From a virus (Duplodnaviria; Caudoviricetes), in IMG/VR virus record IMGVR_UViG_3300044788_000040, positions 1 to 43,780 of that record: a stretch of DNA of 43,780 nucleotides; one strand, 5' to 3'. Under the pieces are notes generated by a model, which ran no database searches, had not been told where the DNA came from, and worked only from the letters and a program-made list of their open reading frames with translations. The translations under genes were made by a program, and so were the position numbers. The number at the start of each line of letters is the position of its first letter. The stretch's first letter is position 1. This document shows, in pieces, positions 4,940 to 43,618 of the stretch.

Positions 4940-4950
4940 CGACCCAGTCG

Positions 4951-4979
4951 TCAGGATCACGACGATCGAAAGCCGTCAA
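4951..4979 (-). promoter_or_regulatory. Late-promoter-like motif TTGAC-N14-GTGATCCTGA (copy 1)
   Basis: Exact motif and spacing recur at six intergenic sites. Confidence 0.7.
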
Positions 4980-5025
4980 GTGAGGAGCCGGAGCGCCGGG
5001 GATGGCGCGTGGTACGCTGGACGGC

Positions 5026-15816: not shown

Positions 15817-15822
15817 GTCCCG

Positions 15823-15851
15823 TCAGGATCACGACGACCGCGGGCTGTCAA
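15823..15851 (-). promoter_or_regulatory. Late-promoter-like motif (copy before tube)
   Basis: TTGAC-N14-GTGATCCTGA exact. Confidence 0.7.
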
Positions 15852-15892
15852 CGACGGCGCTGCTCGAGCGCCAGGTAGCGCCGCCGGCGGTA

Positions 15893-18163: not shown

Positions 18164-18172
18164 CTACCGTCG

Positions 18173-18201
18173 TCAGGATCACGGCCGTGCCGGGCTGTCA
18201 A
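18173..18201 (-). promoter_or_regulatory. Late-promoter-like motif
   Basis: TTGAC-N14-GTGATCCTGA exact. Confidence 0.7.
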
Positions 18202-18212
18202 CGCCGGCGCTT

Positions 18213-18566
18213 CTACGTCCACATCAGGCGAACGCCGACGACCTGCGCGCCGGCGTTGATGATGAACGAGGCCGTCGAGGGGTCGATCGAGATCGTGTCC
18301 GGGTCGGTGTTGTGCAGCCGCACGCCGGTGTCACCAGCGTTGCCCTTGATCTTGAGCGCGATCGCGTTCGCCGCCGGCTTGCGAATCGTGCACGCCGTCG
18401 GGGTCGAGCCGCCGGTCGGCGCGGTGATCACGTTGTCGCCGGAGGCGAGCGTGATGAGCTGGAGCTGTGCCGGGCTCGCCTGGTTGGTGGCGGCGGAGAC
18501 TTCCTCGACGCCAGCGACGTCGCCCGTGTACGTCACCGTGATCTTGCGTTGTGCAGACGTCGCCAT
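18213..18566 (-). CDS. Hypothetical structural protein
   Basis: 117-aa beta-rich, RBS AAGGAG. Confidence 0.7.
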   Translation of the reverse strand: MATSAQRKITVTYTGDVAGVEEVSAATNQASPAQLQLITLASGDNVITAPTGGSTPTACTIRKPAANAIALKIKGNAGDTGVRLHNTDPDTISIDPSTASFIINAGAQVVGVRLMWT

Positions 18567-21777: not shown

Positions 21778-21806
21778 TCAGGATCACGACATTCCGGGCA
21801 CGTCAA
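21778..21806 (-). promoter_or_regulatory. Late-promoter-like motif (before capsid)
   Basis: TTGAC-N14-GTGATCCTGA exact. Confidence 0.7.
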
Positions 21807-24160: not shown

Positions 24161-24166
24161 ACCCCG

Positions 24167-24195
24167 TCAGGATCACGGCATTCCGCGCACGTCAA
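24167..24195 (-). promoter_or_regulatory. Late-promoter-like motif
   Basis: TTGAC-N14-GTGATCCTGA exact. Confidence 0.7.
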
Positions 24196-24220
24196 CGGCA
24201 ACCGTGCGGCTACGCCACAG

Positions 24221-25989: not shown

Positions 25990-25995
25990 GCACCG

Positions 25996-26024
25996 TCAGG
26001 ATCACCGCTCGCTGCGGGTGTCAA
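25996..26024 (-). promoter_or_regulatory. Late-promoter-like motif (before gpW/portal)
   Basis: TTGAC-N14-GTGATCCTGA exact; overlaps terL stop. Confidence 0.7.
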
Positions 26025-27958
26025 CGGCGACGGAGCCAGCTGCCACGGCGCTGTCCTATCCAGCTCGACTTGCGCGGCTGTTCAACAACATGTTCGACGG
26101 CTTCATGTCGCGGTGATCGAACCGCTGCATCCGGCGTGGTGGTCGGCTTCACGCGCGCAGCCGGCGCGAGCCGGTCGATCCCGAGCACGGCTGCCGCGAC
26201 GCGCGCGAGGATGCGGCAGTCGAGGAAGTGGTTCTCGCGGTTCGGGATGACCTGCCACTCGAGCTTCGCGCGATGCGTGCGCCGGTTGACCGTCGTGACG
26301 AGATGCTCGGCGGTGAGCTGCTGGAAGTAGTCCTCGGCGTACTCGGGGAAGTGACAGTAGCCGGCTGGCGGATCGCCTTCGCCGCGACGCAGACGGAGCC
26401 AGCCGTAGAGCTCGCCCTTCGCGATGTCGACGCCGATCGGCCAGACCTTGTAGCCGCGCTGCATGCGCTTGCCGCGAAAGGTGACGTCGACTGGTGACGG
26501 AGCGGCGAAGAGAGCGCGTGATCCGGCGACGCCCTTGCACGCGATCACGCGCGACATCGGGTGTCGCCGTGCCCAACCGTAGACGACCTGCGTGTTGTAG
26601 CCGGAGTCGACCGCGAGCATCGCGATCGGCAGCTCGCGGCCATCGCCGGCAGGGAACGTGCGCGCGAGCAGCTCGTCGAGCTTCGCCCAGGGGGAGTCGG
26701 TCTCCCCGGCCTCGAGTGCCGTGTCGCCGTACAACGCCCCGGCTTCGACCGACCACGACTCCTTGCCCGGCGCCCAGCCGACGAGCTCGTACACGAGGCG
26801 GTCTTTCTGCACGTCGACGCCGCCGGTCACGACGATCGCGGCGGCGGGCACGGTGCCGATCGCGTACGTCTCGCGGCGCTCGTGCAGCCGCTCCCAGTCG
26901 GGCGCTTCGCCGCGTTCTTTCCACGTCTCGCCGAGCCAAAGGTTCACGAACGCGCGCAGCTTCTCGGCACCGCCGCGTTTCGCCGCAAGAAACTCGGTCG
27001 CAATCGCCCCCCAGCTAGCGCCCGGCGAATAGCTCAGGGCCGCCCACAGGTGATACGAGCGATGCGTGCCTCCTGGCTTGTCGGGCCGCCACTCGCCACG
27101 CTCGAACATCTCGAGCTTGTCCCCGTGCTCGATCGCGCATCCGCAACCGCGGCACATGAAGTGTGCGGCGCCGGGATCGTCATCGGGCCATTCCATGACG
27201 TGACCACGTTCCGCCTTCGACGAGAACGCGAGGAAGTCCATGTGTGAGCACGTCGGGCACGGCACGTGGAATCTGCGTTGGTCGCCGTCGAAAAACATGT
27301 CCTCGATGCGGCTCGATCCGGCGACAAGCGGAGTGCTGCCGCACACGATTTTTCTGTTCCAAAAGTACGCGCCGCGCTGCATCGCGAGAGTGACCGGGTC
27401 GCCTTCGTTGCCTGCGCTCGGTGGATATCCATCGACCTCGTCCAGCAAGATCACGCGGCGACTCACGCGCCGGAATCCGGTTCCGCTGTTCGCACCGACG
27501 AGCGACAACACGCCGCCAGGAAACGTCTTGTGCGTAAGCGTCGACGAGTCCTTACGGTCCTCGGAGTCGCGAACCACGATGTCGGCGAGCGCCGGGCAAT
27601 CGCGGAGCAGCGGTCCGACGACCTCCTTTGAGAATCCCTTCGCGTCGTCGACGGTCGGCTGTGCGACGAGGATCGACGTCGGATCGTGGTCGATGTGGTA
27701 GCCGATCGTCGCGGACAGCATGAGCGTGTAGCCGATGCGCGCGCTCTTCATCAGCGAGACCTGCGTGACGGCTTGATCGGAGATGCTGTCGAGGATCTCG
27801 CGCTGATATGGCAGGGTTCGCCAGCGTCCGGGCTCGGCGCTCGTCTCTGGTGACAGGTAGAAGTACCGGTCGGCCCACTCCGACAGCGACAGCCGCTCGG
27901 GCGGTCGCCACGTCTGCATCGCGTGCGCGATGACGGAATCGAGGTTGGCGTAGGTCAT
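26021..27958 (-). CDS. Terminase large subunit, GpA family
   Basis: LSEWAD, KSARIGYT (Walker A), ILLDEVD, GVDVQKDR, NHFLDC. Confidence 0.96.
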   Translation of the reverse strand: MTYANLDSVIAHAMQTWRPPERLSLSEWADRYFYLSPETSAEPGRWRTLPYQREILDSISDQAVTQVSLMKSARIGYTLMLSATIGYHIDHDPTSILVAQPTVDDAKGFSKEVVGPLLRDCPALADIVVRDSEDRKDSSTLTHKTFPGGVLSLVGANSGTGFRRVSRRVILLDEVDGYPPSAGNEGDPVTLAMQRGAYFWNRKIVCGSTPLVAGSSRIEDMFFDGDQRRFHVPCPTCSHMDFLAFSSKAERGHVMEWPDDDPGAAHFMCRGCGCAIEHGDKLEMFERGEWRPDKPGGTHRSYHLWAALSYSPGASWGAIATEFLAAKRGGAEKLRAFVNLWLGETWKERGEAPDWERLHERRETYAIGTVPAAAIVVTGGVDVQKDRLVYELVGWAPGKESWSVEAGALYGDTALEAGETDSPWAKLDELLARTFPAGDGRELPIAMLAVDSGYNTQVVYGWARRHPMSRVIACKGVAGSRALFAAPSPVDVTFRGKRMQRGYKVWPIGVDIAKGELYGWLRLRRGEGDPPAGYCHFPEYAEDYFQQLTAEHLVTTVNRRTHRAKLEWQVIPNRENHFLDCRILARVAAAVLGIDRLAPAARVKPTTTPDAAVRSPRHEAVEHVVEQPRKSSWIGQRRGSWLRRR

Positions 27959-27967
27959 CGGCTGTCC

Positions 27968-28042
27968 GTTGTGCGTTGCACCCTCGCCTCGCCTTGCACA
28001 GCCATGCCTGGCCGCGCCGCGCCTAACCTCGCCAAGCGAGCC
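27968..28042 (-). repeat. GGC-NN pentamer array B4 with 3' hairpin (putative guide RNA)
   Basis: GGCTC GCTT GGCGA GGTTA GGCGC GGCGC GGCCA GGCAT GGCTG TGCAA GGCGA GGCGA GGGTGCAACGCACAAC. Confidence 0.9.
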
Positions 28043-28264
28043 TCATAGTCCGGCGGGCATCCGAATCATCCGCTTGAGCTTCCCATCGCGGCGCACGCGG
28101 TAGCACGCGAGCACCTTGCTCCCCCGGCGAATCACCGCGTAGTCGAGCCCGTGGAGCGTCTGGGTCTTCGCGGACGTCGGCAGATCCTCGCCGCCGCTCG
28201 CGTAGTACGCGGCCAGCGCCCGCTTCGATGCTTCGTCGAGTCCCATCTCCAATTCGTTGTACAT
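28043..28264 (-). CDS. 73-aa accessory protein of RAMP locus
   Basis: RBS GAGGA then ATG after array B3; MYNELEMG...LACYRVRRDGKLKRMIRMP. Confidence 0.75.
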   Translation of the reverse strand: MYNELEMGLDEASKRALAAYYASGGEDLPTSAKTQTLHGLDYAVIRRGSKVLACYRVRRDGKLKRMIRMPAGL

Positions 28265-28279
28265 GAAGTCCTCGATCGT

Positions 28280-28352
28280 GTGCGTTGCACCCATGCCTCG
28301 CCCTGCCCTGCCCTGCCTCGCCCTGCCCTGCCCCGCCTGGCCCTGCCCAGCC
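28280..28352 (-). repeat. GGC-NN pentamer array B3 (12 perfect units) with 3' hairpin
   Basis: NN = TG AG CA GG AG AG GA AG AG AG GA AT, then GGGTGCAACGCAC. Confidence 0.92.
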
Positions 28353-29015
28353 TCACATCTTCGTCAGCTCGACGCGGAACCGCCCGTGCGGTCCAGGCGT
28401 TCGGCCGCTCGGTCGCCAGTCGCCGAGCCCCTTGTACTCGCCCGCAAACGAGAGGATCGAGAGCAGCGCATCCTGCGTGATCTGATCATCCCAGACGTCG
28501 ATGCGACCGCTGAGCTTCCACTCGTGGAACTTCGGGCGCACGCGGATGTGCTTCGACGCCCCGATCTTCGCTCGCTTCACGAACAGCGAGAATCCGCTCT
28601 TCTCCGCGATCGCCTTGTGCTTCTCGAAGTCGAGCTCGCTCTGCAGCTTGTAGATCGGCTTGGCGTCGATCGTCTTGCCGCGCACCTCGATGGCCCACGC
28701 TGGATCGGCGGTCATCATGCCGCTCTGCGTCTGCGCCTTGAACGTCTTGCCGTTCTTCCCGCCCGGGACGGGCACGCTAGCGCCGCCCTCCATGAAGCAG
28801 CGCATGAGGTTGTCGCTCGGCATCACCACGAGCCCGTCATGCTCGTAGAGGCAACCGAGCCACGTGAAGGCCGGCGTCCGATCGTCGCCCGCCTTGCTGA
28901 GCTTCTTGTTGCCAGGGTCCTCGCGCCATCGAGCGAGCTGGTCCGCGAACTCGATGTTGTCGCGGTGAAGCAGGAGGGGGGTGATCCCCGTGAGCGTTGC
29001 GTTGTAGCTGTTCAT
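28353..29015 (-). CDS. Stand-alone Cas7/RAMP-like protein (220 aa)
   Basis: YNATLTGITPLLLH, VMPSDNLMRCF, RVRPKFHEW, C-terminal Gly-rich loop GLGDWRPSGRTPGPHGRF; RBS AAGGGAG; start trimmed to ATG 29015. Confidence 0.8.
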   Translation of the reverse strand: MNSYNATLTGITPLLLHRDNIEFADQLARWREDPGNKKLSKAGDDRTPAFTWLGCLYEHDGLVVMPSDNLMRCFMEGGASVPVPGGKNGKTFKAQTQSGMMTADPAWAIEVRGKTIDAKPIYKLQSELDFEKHKAIAEKSGFSLFVKRAKIGASKHIRVRPKFHEWKLSGRIDVWDDQITQDALLSILSFAGEYKGLGDWRPSGRTPGPHGRFRVELTKM

Positions 29016-29030
29016 TCGATTCTCCCTTGA

Positions 29031-29120
29031 GTTGTGCGTTGCACCCATGCCTCGCCCTGCCACGCCGTGCCTCGCCCGGCCCGGCCGCGCCGTGCCTTGC
29101 CTCGCCATCCAGGCCTCGGC
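29031..29120 (-). repeat. GGC-NN pentamer array B2 (12 perfect units) with 3' hairpin
   Basis: NN = GA AA AC GC CG CG GA AC GT AG GA AT, then GGGTGCAACGCACAAC. Confidence 0.92.
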
Positions 29121-29124
29121 AGAT

Positions 29125-29613
29125 TCACTTGACCAGCCGCGCTCTCGGCAGCTGGTCCTGCGGTTTGAACTCGATCGCGATCTCCTTGCTCGCCTTGCGC
29201 AAGTGATCGGAAGTCGACTCCATGTGACGGAGCACGTGCTCCGCGACGCGCTGCTGCGCCTCGGGAAGCTTGCCGATCTCGACGCTACGGACGTCGTCGG
29301 CCGCCTTGCGGATCTGCTTCGCGCCGCGGCCGTATCGCTTGATGTCGTCGGCGATGCGATCCATGCCGTCGATGACGCGGAATCCGACGCCTGGAACCGT
29401 CGAGAGACGGAGGTTGTTGACCTTGAGGAGGTGTTTCCGCCACGACGCGGTCACGCTGCGGTAGCGCGCCGATCCGACTTCGACCGCGATCGCCTTGGCG
29501 ACGTCGGCATGAGCGATCTCGTCGTCCGCTTTGATGCCCGGAAATGCGGCGAGAAGCCTCCGAACATCTGGTTCAGTCGGGATTCCGCCGAGAAAAAGAC
29601 CGTGTTTACCCAT
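29125..29613 (-). CDS. Winged-helix-like accessory protein of RAMP locus (162 aa)
   Basis: Helical segment then LSTVPGVGFRV, resembling an OmpR-type wing; RBS GGAG; start trimmed to ATG 29613. Confidence 0.7.
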   Translation of the reverse strand: MGKHGLFLGGIPTEPDVRRLLAAFPGIKADDEIAHADVAKAIAVEVGSARYRSVTASWRKHLLKVNNLRLSTVPGVGFRVIDGMDRIADDIKRYGRGAKQIRKAADDVRSVEIGKLPEAQQRVAEHVLRHMESTSDHLRKASKEIAIEFKPQDQLPRARLVK

Positions 29614-29627
29614 CGTTTCGCTCCATT

Positions 29628-29722
29628 TTGTGATGAACACCCTCGCCTCGCCATGCCGAGCCACGCCCAGCCCTGCCGAGCCACGCCCAGCCCTGCCTTG
29701 CCTGGCCGCGCCGAGCCATGCC
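29628..29722 (-). repeat. GGC-NN pentamer array B1 (16 perfect units) with variant 3' hairpin
   Basis: NN = AT TC GC CA AA AG TG GT TC AG TG GT TC AT GA GA, then GGGTGTTCATCACAA. Confidence 0.92.
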
Positions 29723-29727
29723 GTGTA

Positions 29728-29766
29728 CTGTCCACCAGACATACGTCGTGGACAGAGACGCGTCAA
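29728..29766 (-). promoter_or_regulatory. Sigma70-like promoter TTGACG-N17-TATGTC with overlapping inverted repeat CTGTCCAC-N12-GTGGACAG
   Basis: -35 at 29766-29761, -10 at 29743-29738; predicted start just upstream of array B1. Confidence 0.55.
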
Positions 29767-29768
29767 CT

Positions 29769-30266
29769 CTAATCCGCGCCGACGGTGAGATCTTCGAGCG
29801 ACCGCCGAACGCGTCGATCGATCATCTCGATCTGCTTCGGCGTGAGCGTCGGGTCTTCCTGTCGACACCCAGCGGCGATGCCGAGCAGCTTAGTTTTGCA
29901 GCTCGTGAACACCTGCGCGAGACGGGCTTCGACATCCTTCACGGGCACGAGCTCGCTGCGGCGCTCTGCTAGCTTGAGGGCTTCGAACTCCGCGCGTGTC
30001 GCCTCTCGGAGCGAGCGACTCGTGTAGTACTCGGCCATGTCCTTGGACGTAGCGGCTGCGCGATCGACGCGCGGTCGACTGCTCGCGTCGAGCTCGCGGT
30101 CGGCGAGGTCTGGATCCGCGACCTTCGGCGCTCCGTTCACGCGGACAACGGATTCCTTGAGCCGGCCATCCGACACGGCCTTGCTGATCGCCTCGACGGA
30201 GACGCCACGGCGCGTCGCGTAGGCGCGTAACGACATTGGGCTGGTCTTTGTGGCGGTCCGCGTCAA
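29769..30266 (-). CDS. Terminase small subunit (Nu1-like)
   Basis: MSLRAYATRRGVSVEAISKAV HTH; LKLAERRSELVPVKDV; RBS AGGTGG before TTG. Confidence 0.85.
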   Translation of the reverse strand: MTRTATKTSPMSLRAYATRRGVSVEAISKAVSDGRLKESVVRVNGAPKVADPDLADRELDASSRPRVDRAAATSKDMAEYYTSRSLREATRAEFEALKLAERRSELVPVKDVEARLAQVFTSCKTKLLGIAAGCRQEDPTLTPKQIEMIDRRVRRSLEDLTVGAD

Positions 30267-30399
30267 TCGTCCACCTATTCACGAATCGACTTCATCGCGT
30301 TAGATCTCGCGATGTTCCTTACCCGCAACCGGTGGAGTACCCGGTAAGAACCTACACGCACGGGTAGGGGGGTTACTGAAGCCACTCGTCTATCTCGTG

Positions 30400-40527: not shown

Positions 40528-40724
40528 TGGACGAGACCAACATCTTTCTCAACCTGCTGATCGCTGCGATGCAGGACGCCGTCCTCACCGGCCACATCTC
40601 GCAGCTTCAAACGACGATCACGCCAGAGGGCACGAGCAAGGCGAAGTTGCTGCGCATCATCGTGGTCCCCGAAGAGATGGAGATCGTTCGCCCGCTCGGT
40701 GGCGAGTTCAAGAGGCCGCTGTGA
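40527..40724 (+). CDS. 65-aa hypothetical protein (paralog of 41600-41743)
   Basis: LIAAMQDAVLTGHISQLQTT. Confidence 0.65.
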   Translation: MDETNIFLNLLIAAMQDAVLTGHISQLQTTITPEGTSKAKLLRIIVVPEEMEIVRPLGGEFKRPL

Positions 40725-41600: not shown

Positions 41601-41743
41601 TGTCGACCGAAGCGGACATCTTCATCGGGATCCTGATCGCAGCGATGGAGGACGCGGTGACGACCGGCCACATCTCGCAGCTGCAAACCACGATGATCGA
41701 CAACGCAGCAGAGCAATTCCTACGACGAGCGAGGTCACGGTGA
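41600..41743 (+). CDS. 47-aa hypothetical protein (paralog of 40527-40724)
   Basis: LIAAMEDAVTTGHISQLQTT. Confidence 0.5.
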   Translation: MSTEADIFIGILIAAMEDAVTTGHISQLQTTMIDNAAEQFLRRARSR

Positions 41744-41812: not shown

Positions 41813-42514
41813 ATGACCAAGACGAAGGAAGCGACGAAGACAGAGGCAGAACCGAAGCCGCAGATCATCACGATCAAGCCACCGAACATCCAGACGATCG
41901 AGTTGACGATCGAGGGAACTGCGCCGTACGTGCAGCACAAGTTCAGCGCGAAAGCGAAGGCGCAGATCAAGGCGACTCAGGAAGCCGGATCGGTCGACAA
42001 GTCGAAGAAGGTACGCAGCTCGAAAGACTTCGAGGAGGTCTATCGGCAGGCGTTGCACGTAGGGATCGACGGGCGCTACGGAATTCCGGCGCCTGCGTTC
42101 CGCAACGCTGCGATCAGCGCGTGTCGGCTGATCGGTTTCAAGATGACGATGGCGAAGATGGCGATTTTTGTACTCGCCGACACGCTCGATGCAGACGAGC
42201 GCTCACCTCTGGTTCACATCAATCCGGCGAGCAAGGCGACGCTCGCGAAACAGGGAATCTCCGACGAGCAGCCCCATCTGTTCATGAGCCACGCCCGCAA
42301 CGACAACGGCAGCGTCGATCTGCGTGCTCGACCGATGTGGGATCCAGGTTGGACCGCGCAGCTCCGCATCCAGTTCGATGCGGACGTGTTCAGCCCGACG
42401 GACGTGGCGAACCTGATCGCACGCGTTGGTGCTCAAGTCGGGGTCGGCGAGGGTCGACCGGACTCGAAGGACAGCGCGGGCGTCGGTTGGGGGACGTTCA
42501 AGATCGTTGGCTAG
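41813..42514 (+). CDS. Second stand-alone Cas7/RAMP-like protein (233 aa)
   Basis: IELTIEGTAPYVQH, YGIPAPAFRNAAISAC, LRARPMWDPGW, Gly-rich loop GVGEGRPDSKDSAGVGWGTF. Confidence 0.82.
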   Translation: MTKTKEATKTEAEPKPQIITIKPPNIQTIELTIEGTAPYVQHKFSAKAKAQIKATQEAGSVDKSKKVRSSKDFEEVYRQALHVGIDGRYGIPAPAFRNAAISACRLIGFKMTMAKMAIFVLADTLDADERSPLVHINPASKATLAKQGISDEQPHLFMSHARNDNGSVDLRARPMWDPGWTAQLRIQFDADVFSPTDVANLIARVGAQVGVGEGRPDSKDSAGVGWGTFKIVG

Positions 42515-43122
42515 GCGGGACGAGACGAGGGGCTTGGCAGGCGAGGCACGGCGCGGCCTGGCGCGGCGATGCATGGCGCGGCGAGATCTTGGGGAGGCAA
42601 CGCAGGCGGGGACACGCGAGGCTCGACGAGACCGGGATGGGCCCGGAGCGATACGACACGGCAGCGCAGGCGGGGCGAGGCCACGTTGGGCCCGGAGTGG
42701 CACGGCAGGGCCTGGCTGGATTCGCAGCACATCGCTGCGCAAGGCTGCGCTGGGCAGGCAAGGCTGGGCTGGGTGCGTCGCGGCGAGGCTGGGCACGGCA
42801 ACGCAGGAGTCGCCAGGCGGGGCTTGGCTCGGCATGGAATTGCGTGGCACGGCAGGCATGGCAAGGCGCGGCGTGGCGCGGCGCGGCATGGCGAGGCAGG
42901 CGAGGCAGGCAAGGCGCGGCGAGGCGAGGCGAGGCCCGGCCAGACTTGGCATCGCAGGCGACGCAGGACGTGGCTGGGCCCGGCCCGGACTCGCAAGGCA
43001 GGGCATCAACGGCAGGCACGGCGTGGCGCGGAGAGGCATGGCCAGGCATGGCGAGGCAGGCATGGCATGGCATGGCAGGGCCAGTACGGGCGTGGAATGG
43101 CACGGACACGCAGGCGTGGATT
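42515..43122 (+). repeat. ~600-nt GGC-NN pentamer array punctuated by 4-nt (G/C)GCA spacers (putative multi-guide precursor RNA)
   Basis: e.g. GGCA|GGCAT GGCAA GGCGC GGCGT GGCGC GGCGC GGCAT GGCGA|GGCA; fills the gap between RAMP stop and next RBS. Confidence 0.92.
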
Positions 43123-43141
43123 CAACAACAGGAGATCTCGA

Positions 43142-43618
43142 ATGACTGACTACGCATTCTCACGGCCCATGCGAAAGGGCATCGACGCGAACGACGTCGG
43201 CCGTTCGATTCAATCGCTCGTCGACAAGCACGGCGAAGCTCGACCCGAGCATATCGTCAAGGCGGCGCGTAGCGAGAAGCATCCGCTACACGCCCACTTC
43301 GAGTGGGACGACAGCGAGGCAGCGAAACAGCACCGACTCGAACAAGCACGCTACGTCCTGCGCGCGGTGACGATCGTTCGCGAGGATCGACCGGACGTCA
43401 CCATCCGCGCGTTCGTCAACGTCGAGCGCGAAGGTGCGTGGAATCCGATCGATGTCGTGCTCGCGAGCCCGACTGGACGAGAGCAGCTGCTCGCCCAAGC
43501 GCTCTCGGATCTCCAAGCGCTGTCCCGCAAATACCACGTCCTCGAAGAACTCGAAGACGTGAGGTCGGCGATCGCTCGACTCGCCGACGAGAAGCGTGAA
43601 CAGAAGGAAGCGGCGTAG
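43142..43618 (+). CDS. Accessory protein of second RAMP locus (158 aa)
   Basis: RBS ACAGGAG; HPLHAHFEWDDSEAAKQHRLEQAR motif; start trimmed to ATG 43142. Confidence 0.8.
   Translation: MTDYAFSRPMRKGIDANDVGRSIQSLVDKHGEARPEHIVKAARSEKHPLHAHFEWDDSEAAKQHRLEQARYVLRAVTIVREDRPDVTIRAFVNVEREGAWNPIDVVLASPTGREQLLAQALSDLQALSRKYHVLEELEDVRSAIARLADEKREQKEAA

Follow-up and report, generated by a model that had tools for sequence, protein, structure and literature searches.

A VIPR locus between the terminase genes of a probable temperate phage carries a guide predicted to read the terminase of its relatives

VIPR is a phage RNA-guided silencing system that was described in 2026 (10.64898/2026.04.26.720920; 10.64898/2026.04.26.720927, available portion). 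In SUSP1, the Vipr protein coats its guide and forms a gapped R-loop triplex; either strand can be silenced, and the DNA is not cut (10.64898/2026.04.26.720920 and the available portion of 10.64898/2026.04.26.720927). Targets are read with a one-base skip that mostly falls on the wobble position, and self-targets at >=80% were not found (10.64898/2026.04.26.720920). Cryo-EM of SUSP1 Vipr identifies H17, R138 and D177-W178-R179 as readers of the GGY repeated in the guide (10.64898/2026.04.26.720927, available portion), and the accessory gene vap1 is required in vivo in the same system (10.64898/2026.10.15.759431, available portion). As far as the accessible parts of these texts go, the natural targets tested belong to E. 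coli and Pseudomonas phages and comprise satellites, lysogeny regulators and other VIPRs. Free-standing homing endonucleases of phages lie next to an allele that resists them and, during co-infection, attack the corresponding copy of a related phage. Marker exclusion by such enzymes has been reported for T4 SegB (PMC2330249) and MobE (PMC2790892).

Here we describe a VIPR locus in a 43.8-kb phage genome, analysed over its entire length of 43,780 nucleotides (the window), which is the whole of its database record and has an estimated completeness of 94%. The genome encodes a serine integrase, a contractile tail and a GpA-type terminase, and the carrier is likely a temperate myovirus. A cassette of genes and guide arrays, on the minus strand throughout, sits between the terminase genes terS and terL (Table 1). 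The locus is most likely a real VIPR of type II, a system already published; the new part is a guide that matches kin terminase and lies beside a locally altered own copy. We propose, with a probability of roughly 0.7, that this is a type II-like VIPR at terS-terL in which a filament of Vipr on the fourth guide, B4, would bind and silence the terL of candidate rival kin and spare the carrier.

Table 1. Features of the VIPR cassette and its terminase flanks, in window coordinates.
Feature	Coordinates	Strand	Basis or remark
Terminase small subunit (terS)	29769..30266	-	phrog_57 E 3.6e-17; left flank of insertion
TTGACG box (29761-29766) and 7-bp perfect inverted repeat (29729-29754)	29729..29766	-	sequence
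vrRNA B1: 16 GGC-NN units (array 29643-29722) and tail with 3-bp stem	29630..29722	-	
vap1 accessory gene, 162 aa	29125..29613	-	phrog_5926 E 5e-4; HHalign 91% and 73%
vrRNA B2: 12 units (array 29047-29106) and hairpin tail	29034..29106	-	
vipr gene, 220-aa RAMP	28353..29015	-	SUSP1 Vipr in PDB E 1.5e-10; phrog_4652; RAMP fold
vrRNA B3: 12 units (array 28293-28352), low-complexity NN, hairpin tail	28280..28352	-	
73-aa gene, unnamed widespread family	28043..28264	-	passenger or subclade accessory
vrRNA B4: 10 units (array 27984-28033) and hairpin tail	27971..28033	-	units 1-9 decode to kin terL motif SFHIWAAYS
Own terL codons 301-309, SYHLWAALS	27032..27058	-	cognate site of B4, 12/18, predicted escape
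Terminase large subunit (terL), GpA type	26021..27958	-	Pfam PF05876 and PF20454; right flank

The two terminase genes are adjacent in relatives L138 and L142, and arrays are absent from all seven terL-relative loci examined; the cassette is thus an insertion, some 0.9 kb from the altered terL site. One contig from sequencing run X1, possibly the window's own source, spans the cassette with one difference; in a second study, a contig runs across the terS-B1 junction without any. RNA-run contigs cover vipr, but they extend over terL and other genes as well and therefore do not demonstrate transcription of the arrays. Two contigs of run X1 stop and start without overlap at 30312-30314, just upstream of terS, a weak hint of what is possibly a packaging (cos) site.

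The 220-aa protein is Vipr, a RAMP with RRM, thumb and G-loop. Among PDB sequences only SUSP1 Vipr matches it at E<=1 (E 1.5e-10, ~26% identity), and it falls in phrog_4652 together with proteins of the Felixounavirus AYO145A and of LESphi2; a single-protein viral scan returned nothing. Its structural model (pLDDT 94) matches Csm, Cmr and Cas7 RAMPs, the best with Z 10.2 and rmsd 3.2 over 141 aligned residues, and the SUSP1 GGY readers align to H17, R160 and D199-W200-R201, each of them conserved at 90% or more across 118 sequences. The original prediction, made from the sequence alone, had pointed to VIPR as the identity of the locus, quoted RAMP motifs that are indeed present in the protein and argued for a RAMP fold, and in all of this it was right. 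Its assignment of one protomer to each 5-nt unit, with GGY held and NN displayed, agrees with published VIPR and with the conserved GGY readers. It erred in calling the RAMP solo, since the 162-aa gene is, from its sequence, the type II accessory vap1. This gene belongs to phrog_5926, which also covers the accessory genes of Felixounavirus and LESphi2; the link is weak for the window protein by itself (E 5e-4), and its homologues give a stronger one (E to 3e-10). A PADLOC match of vap1 to Cas10 (E 0.007) was dismissed as chance.

The Vipr family numbers 1,900 proteins. Arrays of 5-nt period, which had been expected beside homologues, flank 79 of 80 homologous loci in IMG/VR on the same strand (antisense in one) and 28 of 31 in genomes. 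Of the 80 IMG/VR loci, 74 contain vap1. In 45 of these an array separates it from vipr, so that interleaving is a common layout in the clade of the window's Vipr; vap1 stands upstream of vipr in five of the 74. In the tree, the homologues enclose two type II-like references, whose branches are long and poorly supported. With cas1 not found in the record (estimated 94% complete) and nothing resembling a CRISPR array in the 20 largest repeat families listed for the window, this is a minimal non-CRISPR locus in a virus, as had been anticipated. Rfam gave no match in the window.

The interleaving of four GGC-NN arrays with genes was also borne out: the arrays score 16 (B1), 12 (B2), 12 (B3) and 7.5 (B4), and 40 windows simulated with an order-4 Markov model gave no score above 4. 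Every unit begins with GGC in B1 (16/16), B2 (12/12) and B3 (12/12); nine of the ten B4 units are GGY, one of them GGT, and the tenth is TGC. An extra GGC unit lies out of register upstream of B4, which makes the earlier estimate of about 11 units a fair one. Units 6-9 of B1 are duplicated exactly as units 10-13. Each array spans from a stop codon, or the upstream element, to an RBS-like stretch, and all four end in a common tail of GG plus a hairpin, 13 nt long and identical in B2-B4, with a stem of 4 bp in B2-B4 and 3 bp in B1; the RBS-like stretch and ATG follow ~10-20 nt on. Among 275 distinct tails led by GG[AG] at homologous loci, 158 have GG and a 4-bp stem (shuffles: mean 8.5, maximum 17), the stem covaries, each position showing several types of pair, and the NN of the final unit is stereotyped (AA, AT or GA in 213). 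Single-sequence folds do not favour the hairpin, and only the first stem is evident in the tail ahead of the RBS. These patterns suggest a guide tail much shorter than in described VIPR. In two homologous loci (L031:5662-5861 and L077, the latter with 37 units), uninterrupted arrays run to 37-40 units, beyond the 9-16 described.

Read with a one-base skip, units 1-9 of the ten in B4 spell S-F-H-I-W-A-A-Y-S of terL on the coding strand, with the skipped base at codon position 3; the last unit is a stereotyped cap without a match to terL. IMG/VR was scanned with 7-unit patterns of equal length for B1, B3 and B4, which gave an estimated ~1,300 matches for B4, an estimated ~340 for B3 and 119 for B1, and 120 loci each were fetched for B3 and B4. 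Of the fetched B4 loci, 103 encode terL in the wobble register, with scores over units 1-9 of 14 (47 loci), 15 (one), 16 (53) and 18 (two), where 14 of 18 are built in by the search pattern. An independent test set consisted of seven terL relatives obtained by protein search without use of the guide: the five closest (63-70% identical) score 17, 16, 17, 16 and 16 of 18, and the others 16/18 (40% identical) and 12/18 (50% identical). Reversed B4 had no match in the terL relatives, none of ~1,500 unit-shuffled versions of B4 and 219 foreign guides exceeded 14 in all five closest records, and only a skip of one base works for B4 (17/18, versus 14 at skip 0 and 13 at skip 2). That B4 would read kin terL with its skip on the wobble base is thus well supported computationally.

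This site has a limited range. Seven terL sequences from phage records, hand-picked from tblastn lists of 848 and 150 records, score 16, 14 and five times 11-12, so near kin and some members of the GpA family carry the B4 site, but not the whole family. Guides of homologous loci, 219 in all, never reached 17/18 in 3.1 Mb that contained fragments of terL; in this sample, then, targeting of terL is not the rule. In five unrelated host genomes the B4 pattern gave two non-informative matches (two mismatches), and TerL had no sequence match in the PDB. Terminase as a target was not found in the available portions of the VIPR texts (720920, 720927, 759431 and 10.64898/2026.10.21.760802), whose target tables may list it, nor did searches of the literature bring it up; the target decoded here, a core packaging gene of the carrier's kin, is a new class for VIPR. 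The original prediction had missed the terL target and the one-base skip by which it is read, and also the hairpin tail and the site of insertion.

The carrier's own terL, ~0.9 kb downstream of B4, scores 12/18. It differs from the kin motif by F>Y, I>L and Y>L and by a Ser codon of the other family, a swap that leaves the residue unchanged and loses one B4 unit. Searches of the own genome with four guides of this locus and seven of a second locus, at skips 0-2, found no self-target above the null, and the best random site for the guide there scores 13. Own terL is predicted to escape B4.

How this escape came about separates the proposed reading from its strongest competitor, which has the same target and mechanism and differs in causation only. 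In that account, which we consider unlikely, the locus is an ordinary VIPR whose B4 became aimed at terL rivals after own terL had already changed, whether through drift, through recombination or in escape from another phage's VIPR, and the terS-terL position is merely a moron hot spot without functional linkage. The diverged stretch of own terL does begin upstream of the target, by ~10 residues; other inserts keep terS and terL apart in L141 and L143; and two VIPR loci directly downstream of a GpA-type terL (L069:616-3813 and L081:1030-4370) yielded no terL-matching guide. Two observations weigh against it. In 87 of 302 windows of nine codons the five relatives are conserved, and the target overlaps the three of these that own terL fits worst (8, 9 and 11), in a post hoc test on overlapping windows whose target window falls just below the cut-off for 'conserved' (minimum 15). 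The Ser codon, moreover, has switched family with its residue kept. As a separate observation, the own B4-type motif has diverged in L069 and L081 too.

It is very unlikely that B4 is instead a dampened self-regulator or a relic derived from the carrier's own ancestral terL, now tuning late genes or inert: B4 lies directly upstream of the gene family that it matches, and a 12/18 self match remains with four contiguous-region units perfect, but 12/18 is the chance level when the best random own-genome site reaches 13, and the VIPR paper (720920) has no self-targets at >=80%. Least credible of all is a chance match to terL with the real array targets elsewhere, which could appeal to the four guides, several registers and both strands tried and to the failure of the other three guides, but no shuffle or foreign guide reaches the level of B4, the match holds solely at skip 1 and in the wobble phase, and two of the 103 scan matches are 18/18.

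Under the proposed silencing of kin terL, Vipr would polymerise on the guide with one subunit per 5-nt unit, GGY hidden and NN displayed, as the SUSP1 cryo-EM and residues H17, R160 and D199-W200-R201 imply. Units 1-9 of B4 would then base-pair with kin terL on its coding strand, skipping the wobble base, and the bound filament may act as a transcription roadblock on the rival's terL and remove TerL, leaving only the carrier to package its DNA in a co-infected or lysogenic cell. The 0.9-kb linkage would hold guide and resistant allele together through recombination. The guide matches kin terL and not the altered own copy, so a block of kin DNA packaging is likely, and an aim at competing phages, already suspected in the original prediction, agrees with the published VIPR system. 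More tentatively, the cassette may be a nuclease-free RNA-guided drive that sits beside an essential gene, silences the kin copy and travels with a recoded immune allele, an extension that we regard as doubtful; if it is true, guides would drive local change in terminase sequence and exclusion among close relatives.

A promoter had been placed ahead of B1, where a sigma-70 scan returned no consensus promoter. A hairpin at 29729-29754 is present in both MFE and centroid structures, but with z -0.5. The 7-bp inverted repeat at these positions overlies a putative -10 region directly before B1, and the whole element may be a promoter, an operator (for vap1) or a 5' hairpin. The TTGACG box resembles the TTGAC start of a six-copy repeat family (D4/D5) among the structural genes. 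This minus-strand repeat of ~30 bp (4949-4992, 15821-15864, 18171-18214, 21778-21806, 24165-24208 and 25994-26037) starts with TTGAC, ends in a conserved 12-mer, lies mostly ahead of structural genes and likely represents late promoters or regulator sites. One promoter-like copy lies just downstream of terL and others before further structural genes, so the effect of B4 may be confined to TerL and not be polar on all late genes.

The other guides had no comparable target. Targets of B1-B4 in 82 VIPR loci were not found. The best B1 match in the IMG/VR scan was 23/32, and the matches did not converge; B2 gave five, at most 20/24, of which the pattern itself supplies 16, and these were rejected. 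For B3, one distinct site in a 215-kb contig fits units 1-10 (22/24); with 0.13 such sites expected among 112 and a position off the wobble register, it was set aside as a weak lead. B1-B3 and the second-locus guides gave nothing convincing in the five relatives' records (the many tests included one p of ~0.03, at skip 0). B1-B3 are probably directed at elements outside the searched collections, or are decaying.

The 73-aa protein, modelled as one helix and four strands, comes from an unnamed family that has 689 representatives. No Pfam or PHROG was assigned to 126 members, Foldseek gave no match, the best structural Z was 5.3 and Atlas matches stayed below 0.9. The gene is present in none of 80 vipr loci, and neither vipr nor arrays lie near its distant metagenome relatives (0/18); its sole IMG/VR relative (L088) follows a divergent vipr and array. 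It appears to be a passenger, or an accessory of a subclade, from a family mostly not linked to VIPR; a new accessory factor is possible. N-terminal extensions of two close relatives (P0137 and P0159), read from the protein, resemble translated GGC-NN arrays.

A second, very divergent VIPR locus occupies 41813-43618 on the plus strand of the window. Its Vipr2 (phrog_4652, E 2.6e-16) is ~24% identical to the first and carries EGR instead of DWR in the G-loop. Some 550 bp of short GGC-NN runs with shifting register lead to a phrog_15946 gene, and two of the runs overlap by 1 nt at 43059, like published staggered arrays. Its guides had no targets in the own genome or the five relatives' records. 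Upstream of this locus, a 79-bp duplication (40540-40618 and 41616-41694, 80% identical) covers the start of a small gene.

The first locus supports a one-base-skip, wobble-aligned code in a Vipr ~26% identical to that of SUSP1, and its sensitive and resistant pair of 27-bp sites makes the threshold between self and non-self directly testable; the much shorter guide tail, if so, would be useful for tool building. Like type II VIPR of SUSP1 and the P. fulva prophage, it is phage-borne and has the Vipr GGY readers, vap1, 10-16 GGY-NN units with a 3' tail, a one-base wobble skip and no self target. Unlike SUSP1, with its ~40-nt pseudoknot tail, its guides appear to end in GG and a 3-4-bp hairpin directly before the RBS. 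It departs from described type II loci in having one guide per intergenic gap, vap1 upstream and a 73-aa gene, in its position at terS-terL, and in its predicted target, kin terL in place of satellites and lysogeny regulators. Closest in aim are the solo and vrRNA-targeting vrRNAs (10.64898/2026.10.15.759431, available portion), which are likewise directed at relatives and at wobble-aligned conserved codons with low self match; those target vipr, vrRNAs, a satellite recombinase and REP elements, whereas B4 would target the kin version of an essential packaging gene, of which the carrier's own, locally altered copy lies next to the guide. The RAMP fold is shared with Cas7/Csm3 of class 1 CRISPR, from which the locus differs in the absence of cas1 and of a repeat-spacer array and in its non-contiguous guide. 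As in marker exclusion by homing endonucleases, guide and immune allele are linked; those enzymes act by cutting and gene conversion, whereas here the process is RNA-guided, and the cassette genes have no nuclease match by Pfam, PHROG or fold (vap1 by sequence only), so silencing is proposed rather than cutting and gene conversion.
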